In this document: piece after piece, positions 5,488-18,157 of the stretch
How the letters are laid out: each line of letters starts with the position of its first letter
Numbering within the stretch: the stretch's first letter is position 1
Sequence record: KX009778
DNA from: Escherichia phage UFV-AREG1
Strand: one strand, 5' to 3'
Length of the DNA: 64,000 nt
The notes under the pieces: model-generated
What the model was told of the DNA's origin: nothing
Seen by the model: the letters and a program-made list of their open reading frames with translations, nothing else
Database searches by the model: none
Position numbers and translations under genes: made by a program

Positions 5488-5814
5488 TTATACCTTAGTA
5501 ATTTTCAGGTCTGCAAATTTTTTCTTGCGTTGATTTTTCATGCGACGAATAGTTTTATCGGAAATTTCATGCTTTTGATAAGCTTTAGATTCTACACCAA
5601 AAGCTTTAACATCAAATTCTGACAAGATATATTGAACCAACAATTCACGGATAGTATTACGTCCAATCTTCTGATCATTCTGTTTCATCGTCTGATGAAG
5701 CTCTTTTTCCCATTTATCCAAAATTTGAGGAGTTACAATATCGCCTTTTTCTAGCAAAGAAACTACTTTATCATATGCGTAAGAATTGATGGCGTTTTTA
5801 ATTTGAATAGTCAT
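5488..5814 (-). CDS. hypothetical protein (108 aa)
   Basis: ORF track. Confidence 0.55.
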   Translation of the reverse strand: MTIQIKNAINSYAYDKVVSLLEKGDIVTPQILDKWEKELHQTMKQNDQKIGRNTIRELLVQYILSEFDVKAFGVESKAYQKHEISDKTIRRMKNQRKKKFADLKITKV

Positions 5815-5854
5815 ACATTATTCTCAATTACGTTAAAATTTTATTATCCAAAAA

Positions 5855-5866
5855 GGGCCGAAGCCC
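5855..5866 (-). terminator. Hairpin terminator
   Basis: GGGC-cgaa-GCCC followed by TTTTTGG on minus strand. Confidence 0.5.
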
Positions 5867-6067
5867 TTAGCTAAACTTTTTGGCACCCTTCCAGCCTTCA
5901 TACATCATTGCGGCTGATATTAATATTGCTCCTGAGCAACTTGAATATTTGTGATTCCAAAACCAGTTTAGAAAAACTTCGTCATCAATACCTTGGGCTA
6001 TCATATTTTCAAAGAACTGACGACGAGCTTCGGCAATTCGCTGCGATAATTTAGATTCAGGATTCAT
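5867..6067 (-). CDS. hypothetical protein (66 aa)
   Basis: ORF track; followed by terminator hairpin. Confidence 0.5.
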   Translation of the reverse strand: MNPESKLSQRIAEARRQFFENMIAQGIDDEVFLNWFWNHKYSSCSGAILISAAMMYEGWKGAKKFS

Positions 6068-6199
6068 TTAAATTTTCCAGTTACCATTTTCATCAATAAA
6101 TTTAATCCAGTCATTTACTGACCACTTAGTTGTATCACCTTTTGGAGTAACATTTAAAGTGTATAACCCCTGCTTAAAAAGCATTCGTTTGATATTCAT
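6068..6199 (-). CDS. hypothetical small protein
   Basis: ORF 6068..6283 trimmed to internal Met (MNIKRMLFKQ) to avoid overlap. Confidence 0.35.
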   Translation of the reverse strand: MNIKRMLFKQGLYTLNVTPKGDTTKWSVNDWIKFIDENGNWKI

Positions 6200-6206
6200 A
6201 TTTTCC

Positions 6207-6500
6207 TCAGCTGTAACGATAACACTCGTTTGATTTACGTTTAGCAACTCGTTGAGAAGTATTATAATCAAAATCATCGTCAATGTAAACTGATTTTTTC
6301 AACTTTCTTACTTCACCGCGTAATTGACGATTTAGCTCATCTTTAACTTCTGAATCAATACCTTTCATTCTACGCCATTTATCTGAGCGAAAAATGTTTT
6401 CAACCATATCTTTATGACTTACACCATCAGGAGCTTTACGCTTTCCGAAATAGTCATAATCACGTACTTTTAAATCTTTACGACGATACGTTTTACCCAT
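6207..6500 (-). CDS. hypothetical basic protein (97 aa)
   Basis: ORF 6207..6545 trimmed to ATG at 6500 (MGKTYRRKDLK). Confidence 0.5.
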   Translation of the reverse strand: MGKTYRRKDLKVRDYDYFGKRKAPDGVSHKDMVENIFRSDKWRRMKGIDSEVKDELNRQLRGEVRKLKKSVYIDDDFDYNTSQRVAKRKSNECYRYS

Positions 6501-6672
6501 GGAGTTTAATTTCCTTAGCAACTGAACTAAATACAGCACGATCACAAACCATGCGTTTGTTCCATTTAATCACAGTATAATTAACATCTAGATCATCGAC
6601 TGCTGTAACAATAACGATATGTCCGTTAACACGATAGTACTGGTCAATTTTAATCTCTTTATCAACCATATC
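6493..6672 (-). CDS. hypothetical small protein (~59 aa)
   Basis: Manually read ORF MVDKEIKIDQYYRVNGHIVIV; below ORF-track size cutoff; stop overlaps next start. Confidence 0.35.
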   Translation of the reverse strand, partial: DMVDKEIKIDQYYRVNGHIVIVTAVDDLDVNYTVIKWNKRMVCDRAVFSSVAKEIKLHG

Positions 6673-6810
6673 AATTCCTCAAAGGTAATTCATGTGTTAA
6701 TAATACCACGGTTTGAACTTGTTGTAAACAACTTTGTGAAAAATATTTTAGGGAATGATAAGAAAGGAACGATAGCTTAGAATGGTAATATACAGAATGT
6801 AAGAAAGAAA

Positions 6811-6823
6811 GGCCCAGAGGGCC
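6811..6823 (-). terminator. Hairpin terminator after nrdH-like gene
   Basis: GGCCC-aga-GGGCC followed by TTTCTTTCTT on minus strand. Confidence 0.55.
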
Positions 6824-6827
6824 CGTC

Positions 6828-7153
6828 TTAATCTTCTATGATATCTCTATCATATCCAAGTGAAATGAGAGTTTCTTTGAAGTGTTTAATGTTCTTTTGT
6901 CTAGAATCATTAATGAAAATGACTGGATAACGAATGTTAAGAGATGTGAATCCAGCGCGTTTAGCAAGAGATACAATCAGTGGACGATCATACTCAATCT
7001 TACCATTATTTGTAAGAACTTTATAGAAAGTAAAAGGAGCATTGAGCTCCTTTAGAAGTTTTGTAACTGATTGACATCCAGGACAACGACCTACTTCATC
7101 TGGAATTCCATAGACTTCAATCTTATTCTTTAAGTTCGAGTTTTGTTCCACGA
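6828..7153 (-). CDS. nrdH: NrdH-like glutaredoxin
   Basis: CPGC redox motif (GRCPGCQ) in small protein adjacent to nrdG; start uncertain, probably non-ATG. Confidence 0.55.
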
Positions 7154-12650: not shown

Positions 12651-12893
12651 TTATTCCTTAATTCCTAGTACTTGTTTAAAAGTCTCGTCGTAATCAAGAC
12701 TTTGGCCCGTTTGTTCTTTATGTTTGTATATAATATCACTTACTTCTGATAGCATATTTTTATATGAACGAGTTAAAGCAGATTTAAGCACGCTGTATCT
12801 ATCAGGAAATTTACCATGTTCATTATAATAAGCTATTGCTAATTCACGGACTGCCTTTTCAGCAGCCTCCATATATTCTTTACGCTTGGTCAT
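12651..12893 (-). CDS. hypothetical protein
   Basis: ORF 12651..13052 trimmed to internal Met ([13 protein letters not shown]). Confidence 0.45.
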
Positions 12894-13197
12894 TTTCTTC
12901 TCGGTCAAATCGGTGTTTACAATGGCGGCATTTATAACGAAGATTACTAGTCTGCCAATGGACCAATTGCACCTGTTCAGTTCCACATTCAGGGCAATTA
13001 GGAACGTTTTTAGAAGCCCTTTCGCGACGTTTAACCATAGCCATAATGGCATCCCATGCTGGAGGTTTAAAATCTAAATCGTCACAACCATGAATCTTTC
13101 CACGCATTTCCATATCATCTTCCTCACCAGCCATAATAATTTTAATTAAACTGGAATTACTTGAAGCTGCAATGTCTTCTAATAGACGCTTTTTCAT
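12880..13197 (-). CDS. hypothetical zinc-ribbon protein
   Basis: 105-aa ORF with CPECG...CRHC four-Cys motif. Confidence 0.55.
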
Positions 13198-14123
13198 TTC
13201 AATACCTCAATAGCATTACGTAAACCATTTGCTTTTGCATTAAGAGCTTTTAACAATTTGGTGTGTTCTGCAATTTGGGCTTCAACTTCAATTAAGCGAG
13301 CATTGAGATATTCACGTTCTTCGCTCAGGTTATCAACCTTTTCTACTTTAGGTTCTTTTACAATTGGCTTGTATGTATTAGGGTTCTTCAGTTTAATTAG
13401 AATGCGTGAGCTGTATAACATTGAACCATTATCTTCGGTTTCGTCATACATTTCCACTACGTCCATCATCTCCACCATCGTGCAGAGTTTATAAGACAAC
13501 GAACGAATAGTTTTGTTGTGCTTATTAATTTCTCTAGCTGTCATGGTGCCGAGATTACGTGAGTAATAATAAGGAACCTGGATATTAATTAATACTGATG
13601 AACCACCTGGCTTGTGTGTTACTTCATCAGCAATAACCCAGTCCTTAACATGAACTGTATTTGTACGGTCATCACCCGCGGTAAACAGTTTGCGAGCATG
13701 CTTAAAAAGCATATTCACTTGGTCATTGAATTGACAGGCGAATTTATCAGCAAATTTAGTTTCAGGAATGGTAGATAACCAATCAGCCAAGTGGGTCTTT
13801 TTAACATCGTTAACAATAGTAAATTCAACCAAATCGGTTATAGATGTCGCAGATTTAATGAAGCTCGGCTTCATAAAGTTTTTAATGTTATCACTAGCTA
13901 CAGTAGAAGATAACAGACGAGAACGTTTAAACCATTGAAGCAAATTGCCTAACGAATGAGAATAAGCGTTTTGAGTATCTTTACAGATATGATTTTCCTG
14001 GCCAACATATTGAAGGAAATCACGAAGAATATTATTGATTACTGCTCTGTGCCCGATCTGATAATTACGATGTTTAGTAATAAGACTGTCAAAATAATCA
14101 ATATAATGTTTACGAGTTTTCAT
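13194..14123 (-). CDS. hypothetical protein, coiled-coil paralogue A (309 aa)
   Basis: Globular N-domain, Pro/Lys-rich linker, about 45-residue C-terminal heptad-like helix; shares FKxSRLLS and MVEMMDVVE-type motifs with the next three ORFs. Confidence 0.7.
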   Translation of the reverse strand: MKTRKHYIDYFDSLITKHRNYQIGHRAVINNILRDFLQYVGQENHICKDTQNAYSHSLGNLLQWFKRSRLLSSTVASDNIKNFMKPSFIKSATSITDLVEFTIVNDVKKTHLADWLSTIPETKFADKFACQFNDQVNMLFKHARKLFTAGDDRTNTVHVKDWVIADEVTHKPGGSSVLINIQVPYYYSRNLGTMTAREINKHNKTIRSLSYKLCTMVEMMDVVEMYDETEDNGSMLYSSRILIKLKNPNTYKPIVKEPKVEKVDNLSEEREYLNARLIEVEAQIAEHTKLLKALNAKANGLRNAIEVLK

Positions 14124-14175
14124 ATTCTTCTCACTTGGTTAATGGTTTATACTCCGAGCCATCCTTGGCTTTAAA

Positions 14176-15177
14176 TTACTTAATTAACTGTAAAGCTTGT
14201 TCCAAACGATCAAGACGATTAACAGATTCTTCCCAAATCCTTTTAGCCTGCTCATATTCTTTCTGCGCTTTATTAGAAATTTCTAGAACTTCTTTATAAG
14301 CTTTTTCTAGTGCAATAACTTCTGGACGAATTTCTACCGGTTCAGGAGAATCATCAAGATTATCCATTAGTTCCTCAAGGGTAGTTTCTTCTTTAGGAGT
14401 ATTCACAATTTCATCACATTTTTGTTGGTAAATTTCTTTATCAGTCGGTGAGTACGCACACTTTACTTCACGAAGACTAACTACAATTTTATATCCTTCC
14501 CAACCGCATATATTCTTAAAAGGATATGTATGAATATTTTCTACTGTTTCCATACAAAGTAATGCGGTTTCTAATTGACGAGTTATAGTGCTAGCAATTG
14601 AGAAAAATTTATTAATGTTCTTTTGGTTAGTTTCTGGTGTAAAAAATCCATAATTCACAAAAATAGATACTTTATTTTTATCAAGTTCATATTCTTTTAT
14701 GATAATCATATCAGAAGCCAAAGGATGAATTTGACGATAATCGCCATAACATAATTTAGAAGCTGATTTTAGAATCTGTCCTTTGAAAAGCCTGAAATTA
14801 CTAATCCAACGACGAGTAAAAATATTCTCAGGGTCTTCTTTATTATTAAGATGATAAGAATTAACATCACCGAACCAATTATATCCTACTACATCTTTGG
14901 TTCGTTTAATTTCTTTCCCAAAATTACCAAGAATATCCCGATTAACCAAATATGAAAGAAGACGAGACTCTTTAAAGGTTTTCTTGATAACATCTTTATC
15001 TACACGACTAGAAATTTTACGAATTTCATGAATAAATTTAGTAGAAGAAACAATACCTGCATCAACACTATTGAGCCATTGATTGATAATAGAAATAACG
15101 CTATTTTGACCAAACATCGGTATAGCTTTATCATCAATAACACTATTGAATGATTTGATATATTCGTTACGAGTCAT
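14176..15177 (-). CDS. hypothetical protein, coiled-coil paralogue B
   Basis: ORF 14176..15228 trimmed to ATG at 15177 (MTRNEYIKSF) downstream of its own early promoter and GAGGAG SD; C-terminal coiled coil. Confidence 0.7.
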   Translation of the reverse strand: MTRNEYIKSFNSVIDDKAIPMFGQNSVISIINQWLNSVDAGIVSSTKFIHEIRKISSRVDKDVIKKTFKESRLLSYLVNRDILGNFGKEIKRTKDVVGYNWFGDVNSYHLNNKEDPENIFTRRWISNFRLFKGQILKSASKLCYGDYRQIHPLASDMIIIKEYELDKNKVSIFVNYGFFTPETNQKNINKFFSIASTITRQLETALLCMETVENIHTYPFKNICGWEGYKIVVSLREVKCAYSPTDKEIYQQKCDEIVNTPKEETTLEELMDNLDDSPEPVEIRPEVIALEKAYKEVLEISNKAQKEYEQAKRIWEESVNRLDRLEQALQLIK

Positions 15178-15205
15178 ATTAATCTCCTCAGTAGAAAGTA
15201 AGAAC

Positions 15206-15235
15206 ATTATACCACATCCTTGTGGCAAAGTAAAC
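15206..15235 (-). promoter_or_regulatory. Early sigma70-type promoter (GTTTAC, 18 nt, TATAAT)
   Basis: Minus strand GTTTAC-18nt-TATAAT then GAGGAG SD and ATG of paralogue B. Confidence 0.6.
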
Positions 15236-16260
15236 TAGTTCAGTGCATTTAGTGCATTGTTCAGTTTAGAACGTTGCTTTGTCAGATTTTGAACCCTTGA
15301 CTGAGCTTGTTCTAACACCTTTTCAGCTTCTAGCACTTCATTTGTCGCTTTAACGAGTTCATCATCTACTGCCTTAAGAGACTTCTCAATCGCGTCAGCG
15401 TGCCATTTTTCTACAGGTTTAAAATTTGAATTTTCAGTAGGAAGAAAACTCACTTTATTAAGTTTACATGCATCTATATTGCTTGAGCTATACATCCAAA
15501 ATTTAGGATCGTTTGATGAGTAATTGGATAAATTTAAATTTAAGTTATCTTGCACTTCCTGCTTTTTCTCTTGCGTGACTTCGTCCTTTCTCAAAAAATC
15601 GTATTTAAATGAAACGATCATATCAAGTTCATACGTTGTTGTGTCTAATTTAAATCGTTCAAAACGAGGTAAAATCTTAGATTGAACAGCAGCAACAACA
15701 TCCATATACTTAAATGCTTCTGTCAACTGCGATTTAAGGCATTCGCAAATTGAAAGAGAATTTTTTGTATTAGGTTTAAAGCTAATTCGTGCAGTTCTAT
15801 TATTTTCTTTAAATGGTCTTACTTCCATCTGAAGAGTATAACCATCAAATTTCAGATTCTTTAAGTTAATATCAGAACCTTTTAATCGACTAGCCGTAGA
15901 CAAAATTTGCTTTAATTGTTTACGGAATAGAGCAATAAATCTCCATTCAAGACGATAATGATTTGGATTAAAAAATCCTGTTGATAAATCAACCTTACTC
16001 TGACCAACGCCTTGAACAAATAGAGGATTTTTATAATCAATAGTTTTACAGAAATCGGTGAGCTGCTCACGAGCAGTCATTTGTGTAATATACCCCGCTT
16101 TACTAAAATGACGTAACCATTCACTGCTATTCATATACTTAAAGTGAATGGAACTATTAACTCTATCAGGGTCTAAATTATTTTGGCACAAAAATGTCAT
16201 AACATTACGGGTATAGCTGGCATTACGAACCATATCTTCAATTTGAGAACGAGTTTTCAT
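15235..16260 (-). CDS. hypothetical protein, coiled-coil paralogue C (341 aa)
   Basis: Same architecture; YMDVVAAV motif; C-terminal coiled coil. Confidence 0.7.
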   Translation of the reverse strand: MKTRSQIEDMVRNASYTRNVMTFLCQNNLDPDRVNSSIHFKYMNSSEWLRHFSKAGYITQMTAREQLTDFCKTIDYKNPLFVQGVGQSKVDLSTGFFNPNHYRLEWRFIALFRKQLKQILSTASRLKGSDINLKNLKFDGYTLQMEVRPFKENNRTARISFKPNTKNSLSICECLKSQLTEAFKYMDVVAAVQSKILPRFERFKLDTTTYELDMIVSFKYDFLRKDEVTQEKKQEVQDNLNLNLSNYSSNDPKFWMYSSSNIDACKLNKVSFLPTENSNFKPVEKWHADAIEKSLKAVDDELVKATNEVLEAEKVLEQAQSRVQNLTKQRSKLNNALNALN

Positions 16261-16268
16261 GGTATTCC

Positions 16269-17159
16269 TTAAGATTTAAGTAAATCAACAATTTTAATTA
16301 ACTTTTCACGCTCAGATTTAGCTTTACTACTCAATCCAGATAGTCTGAAAATTTCATCATCATATTGTTGAATAGAAATATTCAGCTCTTCAATTTGCTT
16401 ATTAAAATAATCAATTTGTTCAGAATGTTTTTCGTTACTACGAACTGGTACAGGTTTTGTAGGCAATTTAGTTGAACTAGATTCATCCGGGCGATAAATT
16501 AAAATACAACTTGAACCAATAGGGCATTTTGCACCAGATGAATATTCTAATGTTCCAGCTTCTTTTAAAACTTCAAAAGCTAAACAGAGATGATGTCCCA
16601 TATTAACATAATCTGTAGAGTGAGCTCTGATGTAATAATCATCTCCACGAATACTAAATTTAAAGCATTTAAGGTCTTCTGTATTATTGGTCTTAAAAAT
16701 CATTTGTTTATCTAGACCTTTAGCTAATCGAGCGCCCAATGCTAATAATCGTCGTTGATTTTCCCACAAATCCGCAATCATTTGGTCGAATGATAATTTC
16801 GGCATTAGTCGACCATAAAGGTCATATCCTTTATTATAATTACGAAGGATTTCACTCGCGTTAATACGAGACAATGCTCCAATTTTATTAAGGGCTTTCA
16901 TAATACGATTAGATAAACTCATTCCAGACCCGTTTGTTCGCTGTAAATGTTTTTCTAATCCAAATCCAATATCAACTTTAAACTTATCTAAAATTTCAGC
17001 ATGAACATCTTTGTCGATAACATTCAAATCCAAAGTTGGGTTAAATCTATGAAAAAATTTATCTGGCTCTCCACGACGAAATACAGTCCATTCATTCATC
17101 ATTTTTTTATTAACTAAAGATTTAATTACTGTATTGACATTATTAATTACTACTGACAT
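16269..17159 (-). CDS. hypothetical protein, coiled-coil paralogue D
   Basis: ORF trimmed to ATG at 17159 (MSVVINNV) with GAGG SD; C-terminal coiled coil. Confidence 0.65.
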   Translation of the reverse strand: MSVVINNVNTVIKSLVNKKMMNEWTVFRRGEPDKFFHRFNPTLDLNVIDKDVHAEILDKFKVDIGFGLEKHLQRTNGSGMSLSNRIMKALNKIGALSRINASEILRNYNKGYDLYGRLMPKLSFDQMIADLWENQRRLLALGARLAKGLDKQMIFKTNNTEDLKCFKFSIRGDDYYIRAHSTDYVNMGHHLCLAFEVLKEAGTLEYSSGAKCPIGSSCILIYRPDESSSTKLPTKPVPVRSNEKHSEQIDYFNKQIEELNISIQQYDDEIFRLSGLSSKAKSEREKLIKIVDLLKS

Positions 17160-17574: not shown

Positions 17575-17629
17575 AATAATCTCAATTAAAAGGGCTTAGA
17601 ACCATTATACCATCCTTGGTATAAAGCGG

Positions 17630-18157
17630 TTATGCGAGTACCGTCTTTAACCGTTCTTCAAACTTCCGAAGAGTATTTTGGCGTTCAGCTCTTTGCTTTT
17701 TGTAAGTTTCAATACGCTCTGAAATGAGAGTGTATCGTTCATTTACTGATTCTTTCATAAAATCAGGAATTTCACGAGAAGCTTTAATCTCATCAAATTT
17801 ATCAATAACAGCTTGCTCTTCAGCAATTAAGTTATCATACATCAAAATATCTTTCTTGATGAACTCAATATCTTCTTGAGTTACACGAGATAATTTAGAT
17901 GCTTTATCCTTTTTGTACTGTTCGTTAGTATCACGAGACCAGTGTAATGTACGATTTTTATTCGTATTTTTGTAAATTTCTACAATACCAATCTCATCAA
18001 TAATAACGATCCAATTCCAACGGGATTTGTAAATTTGTCCTCCATCAACTGTGATTTCACCTCCGATTGAGATGTCATTAAAGAACTTGCTTTGTGCTTC
18101 TGATTTAAATTTACCATCATTGTAATTTACCAGGTTGAAAATATCTTTAGCGTTCAT
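17630..18157 (-). CDS. hypothetical protein (175 aa)
   Basis: ORF track; own early promoter immediately upstream. Confidence 0.65.
   Translation of the reverse strand: MNAKDIFNLVNYNDGKFKSEAQSKFFNDISIGGEITVDGGQIYKSRWNWIVIIDEIGIVEIYKNTNKNRTLHWSRDTNEQYKKDKASKLSRVTQEDIEFIKKDILMYDNLIAEEQAVIDKFDEIKASREIPDFMKESVNERYTLISERIETYKKQRAERQNTLRKFEERLKTVLA

Follow-up and report, generated by a model that had tools for sequence, protein, structure and literature searches.

We analyzed a 64,000-nt stretch of Escherichia phage UFV-AREG1 (record KX009778; hereafter the window, meaning this whole stretch) and focused on four consecutive genes that are the orthologues of T4 nrdC.3, nrdC.4, nrdC.5 and nrdC.6 (products hereafter labeled C3, C4, C5 and C6, respectively). 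Comparisons of family profiles indicate that NrdC.3, NrdC.4, NrdC.5 and NrdC.6 are distant paralogues forming one old, expanded family. We consider it reasonably probable that they are early, dispensable, probably oligomeric inhibitor proteins of host immunity with different targets. The genes themselves and one function, that of NrdC.5 against the defense protein Dsr1, were already known. What our sequence comparisons add is that NrdC.3, NrdC.4 and NrdC.6 emerge as distant paralogues of the anti-Dsr1 protein, and that the family reaches other Tevenvirinae genera, where in most cases one copy occupies the corresponding place in the genome.

The window segment belongs to Tequatrovirus (T4-like), and all genes around the array lie on the minus strand. 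The surrounding ~4.4 kb showed 97% identity to Escherichia phages AV122, NR1 and slur02, with 655 phage records matched. This order of nrdC.3 to nrdC.6 recurs in the T4 reference, wV7 and Bas37/KarlGJung, and transcription runs from nrdC.6 to nrdC.3, opposite to the window coordinates. C4 was 97% identical to T4 NrdC.4, C5 91.5% to T4 NrdC.5, and C6 97% to T4 NrdC.6 across residues 1-259; C3 shared 60.6% identity with T4 NrdC.3, 76% with RB69 NrdC.3 and 95% with the Bas37 copy. Full-length matches to PHROG 1435 were obtained for C3 (E = 9e-116) and C4 (E = 6e-169), and to PHROG 2257 for C6 (E = 4e-152), while C5 matched PHROG 2351. C5 also matched the Pfam family DUF7235 (PF23882; E = 4e-114; score 381.5 bits, curated cut-off 30), its residues 1-341 aligning to profile positions 1-307 of 307. 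Precomputed Pfam labels on homologues were PF26897 for the C4 family, PF23882 for C5 and PF26899 for C6. C5 is thus the orthologue of T4 NrdC.5 by its full-length DUF7235 match and its identical place between nrdC.6 and nrdC.4, and C3, C4 and C6 are orthologous to T4 NrdC.3/NrdC.4 (PHROG 1435, PF26897) and NrdC.6 (PHROG 2257, PF26899) by full-length profile and synteny. The original prediction had described four consecutive open reading frames (ORFs) of 296 to 341 amino acids (aa) with a shared architecture in the nrdC-to-tk accessory region, all of which is borne out, but its statement that they could not be assigned to any T4 protein is overturned by this identity and synteny.

Pairwise BLASTP among the four proteins was significant for C3 and C4 only (E = 2e-7, 25.5% identity over 231 residues). 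We further compared profiles with hhalign, using family alignments of database homologues plus orthologues from T4, wV7, RB69, MN01, SP18 and Bas37, and pooled the C3 and C4 families (C3/C4) and, likewise, the C3, C4 and C5 families (C3/C4/C5). At full length, significant similarity was detected between C3 and C4 (E = 9.7e-15), between C5 and C3/C4 (E = 2.5e-6, 248 colinear columns), and between C6 and C3/C4/C5 (E = 9.4e-7, 214 colinear columns reaching the C-terminus). Because coiled coils can raise such scores artificially, the test was repeated with the N-terminal domains (N-domains) only, and the similarity remained significant and colinear without the coiled coil (E = 3.4e-15, 2.3e-6 and 5.7e-5, respectively). 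Pairwise comparison of hidden Markov models (HMMs) therefore upholds the earlier proposal of tandem paralogues for all four families, and NrdC.3/NrdC.4, NrdC.5 and NrdC.6, which databases hold as separate families, are linked here into one superfamily. A superfamily motif, [IL]L..A.[KR]L..G.D, was located in the helix preceding the beta-sandwich. FKxSRLLSxxV, previously put forward as a shared motif, is strict in C3/C4 only and degenerate in C5 and C6 (FSKAGYITQMT and LNKIGALSRIN), and is the poorer of the two as a signature of the superfamily.

PM2_092 (309 aa; A0A0A0PZG4), encoded directly after nrdC.2 in Pectobacterium phage PM2, matched the C5 (5e-5), C3/C4/C5 (6e-6) and C6 (5e-6) profiles, and its N-domain alone matched those of C5 (N5, 3e-5) and C6 (N6, 1e-4). 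This protein joins a C6-like motif (FLALGARCQFG) to a C5-like ending (LFAALSALK). It is a natural intermediate bridging C5 and C6 in both profile and fold searches, and strengthens the case for paralogy. Like the 335-aa protein of phage IME523 (QEA10564.1, equated with A0A7G3KGN9 solely on the basis of its length and the name of the phage), it has the same architecture, an ending in …LFAALSALK and a position by nrdC.2 and nrdC, but both occur as one copy per genome rather than three or four, with 13-16% identity to the window proteins. Searching all window ORFs with the family profiles (hmmsearch) gave no cross-family match and revealed no paralogue beyond these four anywhere in the 64 kb. When 1.84 billion representative proteins were searched with the C3/C4 profile, no more than nine matches came back, none of them a C5 or C6 family representative; those inspected were C3- or C4-like. 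Source-labeled homologues all came from T4-like phages, or from bacterial or metagenome records with a near-identical protein. NrdC.8 has a long terminal helix as well, but its similarity to the family was undetectable (E = 0.036, helix only), and PM2_095 and PM2_088 were not members either.

C5 and C6 were the two proteins modeled with AlphaFold2, from separate alignments (mean predicted local distance difference test score, pLDDT, 72.6 and 77.5). In both models the N-domain was confident (residues 1-227), the linker was of low confidence (228-282 in C5, 228-242 in C6), and terminal helices were predicted at 285-340 in C5 and at 243-272 plus 278-295 in C6. Both modeled N-domains run, in their second half, through two helices, a beta-hairpin, a helix and a second beta-hairpin. 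Secondary structure agreed at 65% of profile-aligned positions, compared with 23-50% when the register was shifted, values of ~60% being reached only at shifts of 5-7 residues. Foldseek searches of BFVD with the two models gave significant matches only to uncharacterized proteins of other T4-like phages. Three entries were common to both (PM2 A0A0A0PZG4, Acj61 E5E4A2 and Mineola A0A2Z4QAR2), at template modeling scores of 0.3-0.5. Searches of PDB sequences came back empty for both family profiles, and no solved structure with an assigned function proved related to the N-domain. Pfam, NCBIfam and PADLOC yielded no functional domain, and no enzyme family was matched in Pfam or NCBIfam. Weak matches to XerD, PgrA and BrxC were dismissed, as they fell far under the cut-off and lay mostly on helical or coiled-coil stretches.

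Each of the four proteins combines a globular N-domain, a linker and a heptad-patterned tail. The N-domains span ~227-245 residues, somewhat less than the roughly 260 aa of the original prediction, and are basic (isoelectric point, pI, 9.1-9.6; net charge +6 to +12); the idea that they mimic DNA was rejected for this reason. In our own reading of the alignments, no residue of catalytic appearance was conserved in all four. The linkers are variable (15-55 residues) and probably disordered. The Pro/Lys-rich composition once ascribed to all of them holds for C3 and C6 (15-17 aa) but not for C4, where the linker is acidic (45 aa), or for C5, where it is Asn/Ser-rich (55 aa, pLDDT < 50); a [KE]P[VI] motif stands right ahead of the helix in all four. 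The predicted heptad-like helix was confirmed: the C-terminal 47-59 residues follow an unbroken heptad pattern, with 80-94% hydrophobic residues at a/d positions versus 18-31% at the others (shuffle P <= 0.004), and C3-C6 are in one register when the heptads are numbered from the ending they share, L..A[IL]..L[KN]. Across orthologues the tail is conserved at least as strongly as the N-domain (74% vs 50% in the C4 family). Such a coiled-coil tail probably makes the proteins dimers or higher oligomers.

We next consider how the family has evolved. Ratios of nonsynonymous to synonymous substitution rates (dN/dS) against T4, wV7 and Bas37 were 0.13-0.31 for C3, C4 and C5 and 0.07-0.09 for C6, compared with <=0.02 for the neighbors 49, nrdC, nrdC.9 and nrdC.10. 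C3-C6 thus evolve 5-10 times faster by this measure than housekeeping neighbors, yet under purifying selection. The "rapidly diverging" of the original prediction applies relative to the neighbors and not in absolute terms. The duplications are old: further Tevenvirinae genera have their own orthologues of the individual paralogues. Across T4-like genomes, copy number varied by genus from one to four: four in Tequatrovirus, three in RB69 (without nrdC.4), three in MN01 and SP18, both Gaprivervirus (without nrdC.3), and one each in PM2 and IME523, where the member keeps its place behind nrdC.2. Within Tequatrovirus, NrdC.3 alleles form two classes that lie far apart (~95% vs ~60% identity to the window copy; synonymous divergence, dS, > 1), and the window and T4 copies (61% identity, dS > 1) belong to different classes. 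That the window NrdC.3 is closer to RB69 (76%) than to T4 (61%) speaks for alleles having been exchanged across genera and not for rapid divergence in place. In closely related alleles of NrdC.5 and NrdC.4, differences clustered in residues 21-60, residues 181-220 and the linker, while the core (residues 61-180) and tail were almost invariant. C5 itself differs from T4 NrdC.5 at ~8% of residues, mainly in these same three regions, and anti-Dsr1 activity was shown for the T4 allele only.

Several copies are damaged. T4 NrdC.6 (NC_000866 10067-10894) is annotated as 275 aa and past residue 259 reads …EELIFLFNNMMMKFSDYLD rather than the conserved coiled-coil tail, so that the T4 reference gene is apparently frameshifted, with the tail lost. 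The C5-like gene of RB69 (about 5500-6000) is frameshifted, its canonical tail (…KLFNAMNALKS) lying in another reading frame, and that of SP18 (5956-6860) is frameshifted and split into two ORFs. We also observed a deposited 299-aa fusion protein, in which NrdC.5 from ~146 to ~270 is followed by NrdC.3 from ~136 to the end with nrdC.4 deleted, and an internal tandem duplication of ~80 residues in NrdC.6 of Shigella phage Sf25 (378 aa).

A previous study demonstrated that a T4 deletion mutant fails on ECOR17 and on MG1655 carrying dsr1, that this mutant can grow on MG1655 if dsr1 is absent, and that nrdC.5 alone, supplied in trans, restores its plaquing on MG1655 with dsr1 (Srikant, Guegler & Laub, eLife 2022; PMC9391042). 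Dsr1 is a SIR2 NADase whose tetratricopeptide repeat (TPR) sensor is triggered by the phage major capsid protein (2026 preprint). According to the HIDEN-SEQ 2025 preprint, T4 nrdC.1 inhibits Septu and bas37_0203 inhibits Druantia III; in our mapping, bas37_0203 of phage KarlGJung (Bas37) is the orthologue of NrdC.8. As orthologues of nrdC.5, nrdC.1 and nrdC.8 counter defenses, the four paralogues lie within a counter-defense island. The earlier guess of an anti-defense function therefore stands for T4 nrdC.5 against Dsr1, and for the flanking nrdC.1 and the NrdC.8 orthologue, while for NrdC.3, NrdC.4 and NrdC.6 we infer such roles by analogy, from paralogy and the surrounding island.

We propose that the four most likely act by inhibiting immune proteins of the host stoichiometrically. 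The coiled coil would join the proteins into a dimer or higher oligomer, and the N-domain would bind a defense protein and prevent its triggering, with the variable patches at ~21-60 and ~181-220 as candidate contact surfaces. NrdC.5, made early, may occupy or disable Dsr1, possibly by direct binding, before the late capsid protein appears, and NrdC.3, NrdC.4 and NrdC.6 may neutralize other defenses. Several points weigh against this proposal. A phenotype is on record for NrdC.5 only and a binding partner for none of the members, and the HIDEN-SEQ text consulted names nrdC.1 and bas37_0203 without mention of nrdC.3-nrdC.6. Moreover, the oligomeric state of NrdC.3-NrdC.6 is one that we infer, C6 is tied to C3/C4/C5 solely through profile and fold evidence of moderate strength, and the basic N-domains would also be compatible with nucleic-acid binding.

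This last point leads to a different explanation, in which the proteins are host-takeover or nucleic-acid-binding factors whose oligomerized basic N-domains bind host DNA, RNA or RNA polymerase, and the rescue from Dsr1 is indirect, for example through a shift in when, or in what amount, the capsid trigger is made. Both the charge of the N-domains (pI 9.1-9.6, net +6 to +12) and the early expression signals agree with it. We nevertheless consider it unlikely, given that the phage can do without these genes on laboratory E. coli, that nrdC.5 alone rescues specifically against dsr1, and that no nucleic-acid-binding family was matched in Pfam or NCBIfam. It is also quite improbable that the proteins bind the phage's own major capsid or other late proteins and hide them, by shielding or mimicry, from sensors such as Dsr1. 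Although the major capsid protein is indeed the trigger of Dsr1, proteins made early would have to persist and equal a very abundant late protein in amount, no capsid-like fold was present among the fold-search matches, and genes dispensable on laboratory hosts show no link to virion assembly. Finally, there is very little chance that only C3 and C4 are related and that C5 and C6 resemble them by convergence on a generic alpha/beta domain plus coiled coil: BLASTP beyond C3-C4 is non-significant, HMM-to-sequence searches do not cross families, PHROGs separates three families and homologues bear three different Pfam labels, but the N-domain-only profile comparisons are significant and colinear, PM2_092 bridges C5 and C6, the C5 and C6 models have fold-search matches in common, the order of elements and the heptad register of the L..A[IL]..L[KN] ending are the same, and members keep their position after nrdC.2 in other genera. 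Inhibition of host immunity is the reading we retain as best supported.

The coordinates of the four genes, their parts and the flanking features are given in Table 1.

Table 1. Positions in the window of the nrdC.3-nrdC.6 array, its encoded domains and associated features
Feature	Position	Strand	Remarks
nrdC.3 orthologue (C3)	13194-14123	minus	ORF, 309 aa
C3 N-domain	13389-14123	minus	
C3 linker	13338-13388	minus	Pro/Lys
C3 heptad helix	13197-13337	minus	
nrdC.4 orthologue (C4)	14176-15177	minus	ORF, 333 aa counted from ATG
C4 N-domain	14458-15177	minus	
C4 linker	14323-14457	minus	acidic
C4 heptad helix	14179-14322	minus	
nrdC.5 orthologue (C5)	15235-16260	minus	ORF, 341 aa
C5 N-domain	15580-16260	minus	
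C5 linker	15415-15579	minus	disordered
C5 heptad helix	15238-15414	minus	
nrdC.6 orthologue (C6)	16269-17159	minus	ORF, 296 aa counted from ATG
C6 N-domain	16479-17159	minus	
C6 linker	16434-16478	minus	Pro-rich
C6 heptad helix	16272-16433	minus	kink at SGLS
Early-type promoter, predicted (GTTTACT, 17 nt, TGGTATAAT)	15206..15234	minus	between nrdC.5 and nrdC.4
nrdC.1	12651-12893	minus	flanking gene; T4 copy anti-Septu
nrdC.8	17630-18157	minus	flanking gene; orthologue bas37_0203 anti-Druantia type III; ends in long heptad-like helix

A consensus scan predicted the early promoter ahead of nrdC.4 with 10/12 consensus matches and an extended -10 element, and similar extended -10 elements were found ahead of nrdC.7 and nrdC.8. 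The C4 ORF could be extended from a TTG up to 15228 and the C6 ORF from a GTG up to 17195; the ATG start of C4 has a GAGGAG ribosome-binding site upstream, and that of C6 is likewise preceded by a ribosome-binding site. These promoter signals and ribosome-binding sites would fit early expression, and a role as virion-packaged internal proteins was set aside on account of the early-type promoter signals. Some database NrdC.4 homologues are annotated 10 residues longer (MFLLSTEEIN…), from an upstream ATG at 15207-15209; as this ATG falls within the -10 box of the predicted promoter, the 333-aa start is more likely. The intergenic regions before nrdC.3, nrdC.4 and nrdC.7 (14124-14175, 15178-15234 and 17575-17629; minus strand) have in common a CCA(C)AAGGATG(T)GG element, located just ahead of, or overlapping, the extended -10 box (TGGTATAAT or GTATAAA), which may be part of the T4 early promoter spacer. 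The same element also makes a short hairpin, flagged as terminator-like by the scan at 15210-15227.

A functional analogy can be drawn with DSAD1 of SPbeta-like Bacillus phages, which two reports describe as an anti-DSR2 factor, a small protein acting against a SIR2 NADase that senses a phage structural protein (PMC10981675, PMC11087589). The likeness to NrdC.5 lies in the proposed logic only; the target is DSR2 rather than Dsr1, and NrdC.5 has a coiled-coil tail. DSAD1 was absent among the matches listed in Pfam, PHROGs, BFVD and PDB. Regarding annotation, many GenBank records label NrdC.3-NrdC.6 and their neighbors "thioredoxin", which we flag as a widespread error: no thioredoxin family was matched in Pfam or NCBIfam, and the name seems to have been carried over from nrdC, the gene beside them. 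In one T6 record, NrdC.5 is given as "tail sheath stabilizer".

A broader and decidedly tentative possibility, to which we give much less credence than to immune inhibition itself, is that the array is a modular inhibitor platform, in which a conserved coiled-coil scaffold shows fast-changing N-domains, each for a different bacterial sensor. The tails might then cross-pair into mixed complexes with several specificities, and gain and loss of copies, from one to four per genome, would track the defense repertoire of the host range. Candidate targets of such a platform include several defense families that have in common a TPR sensor of the Dsr1/Avs7 type for capsid protein. For T4, the reference phage, these findings turn the anti-Dsr1 gene into a lead to three more candidate counter-defense genes.

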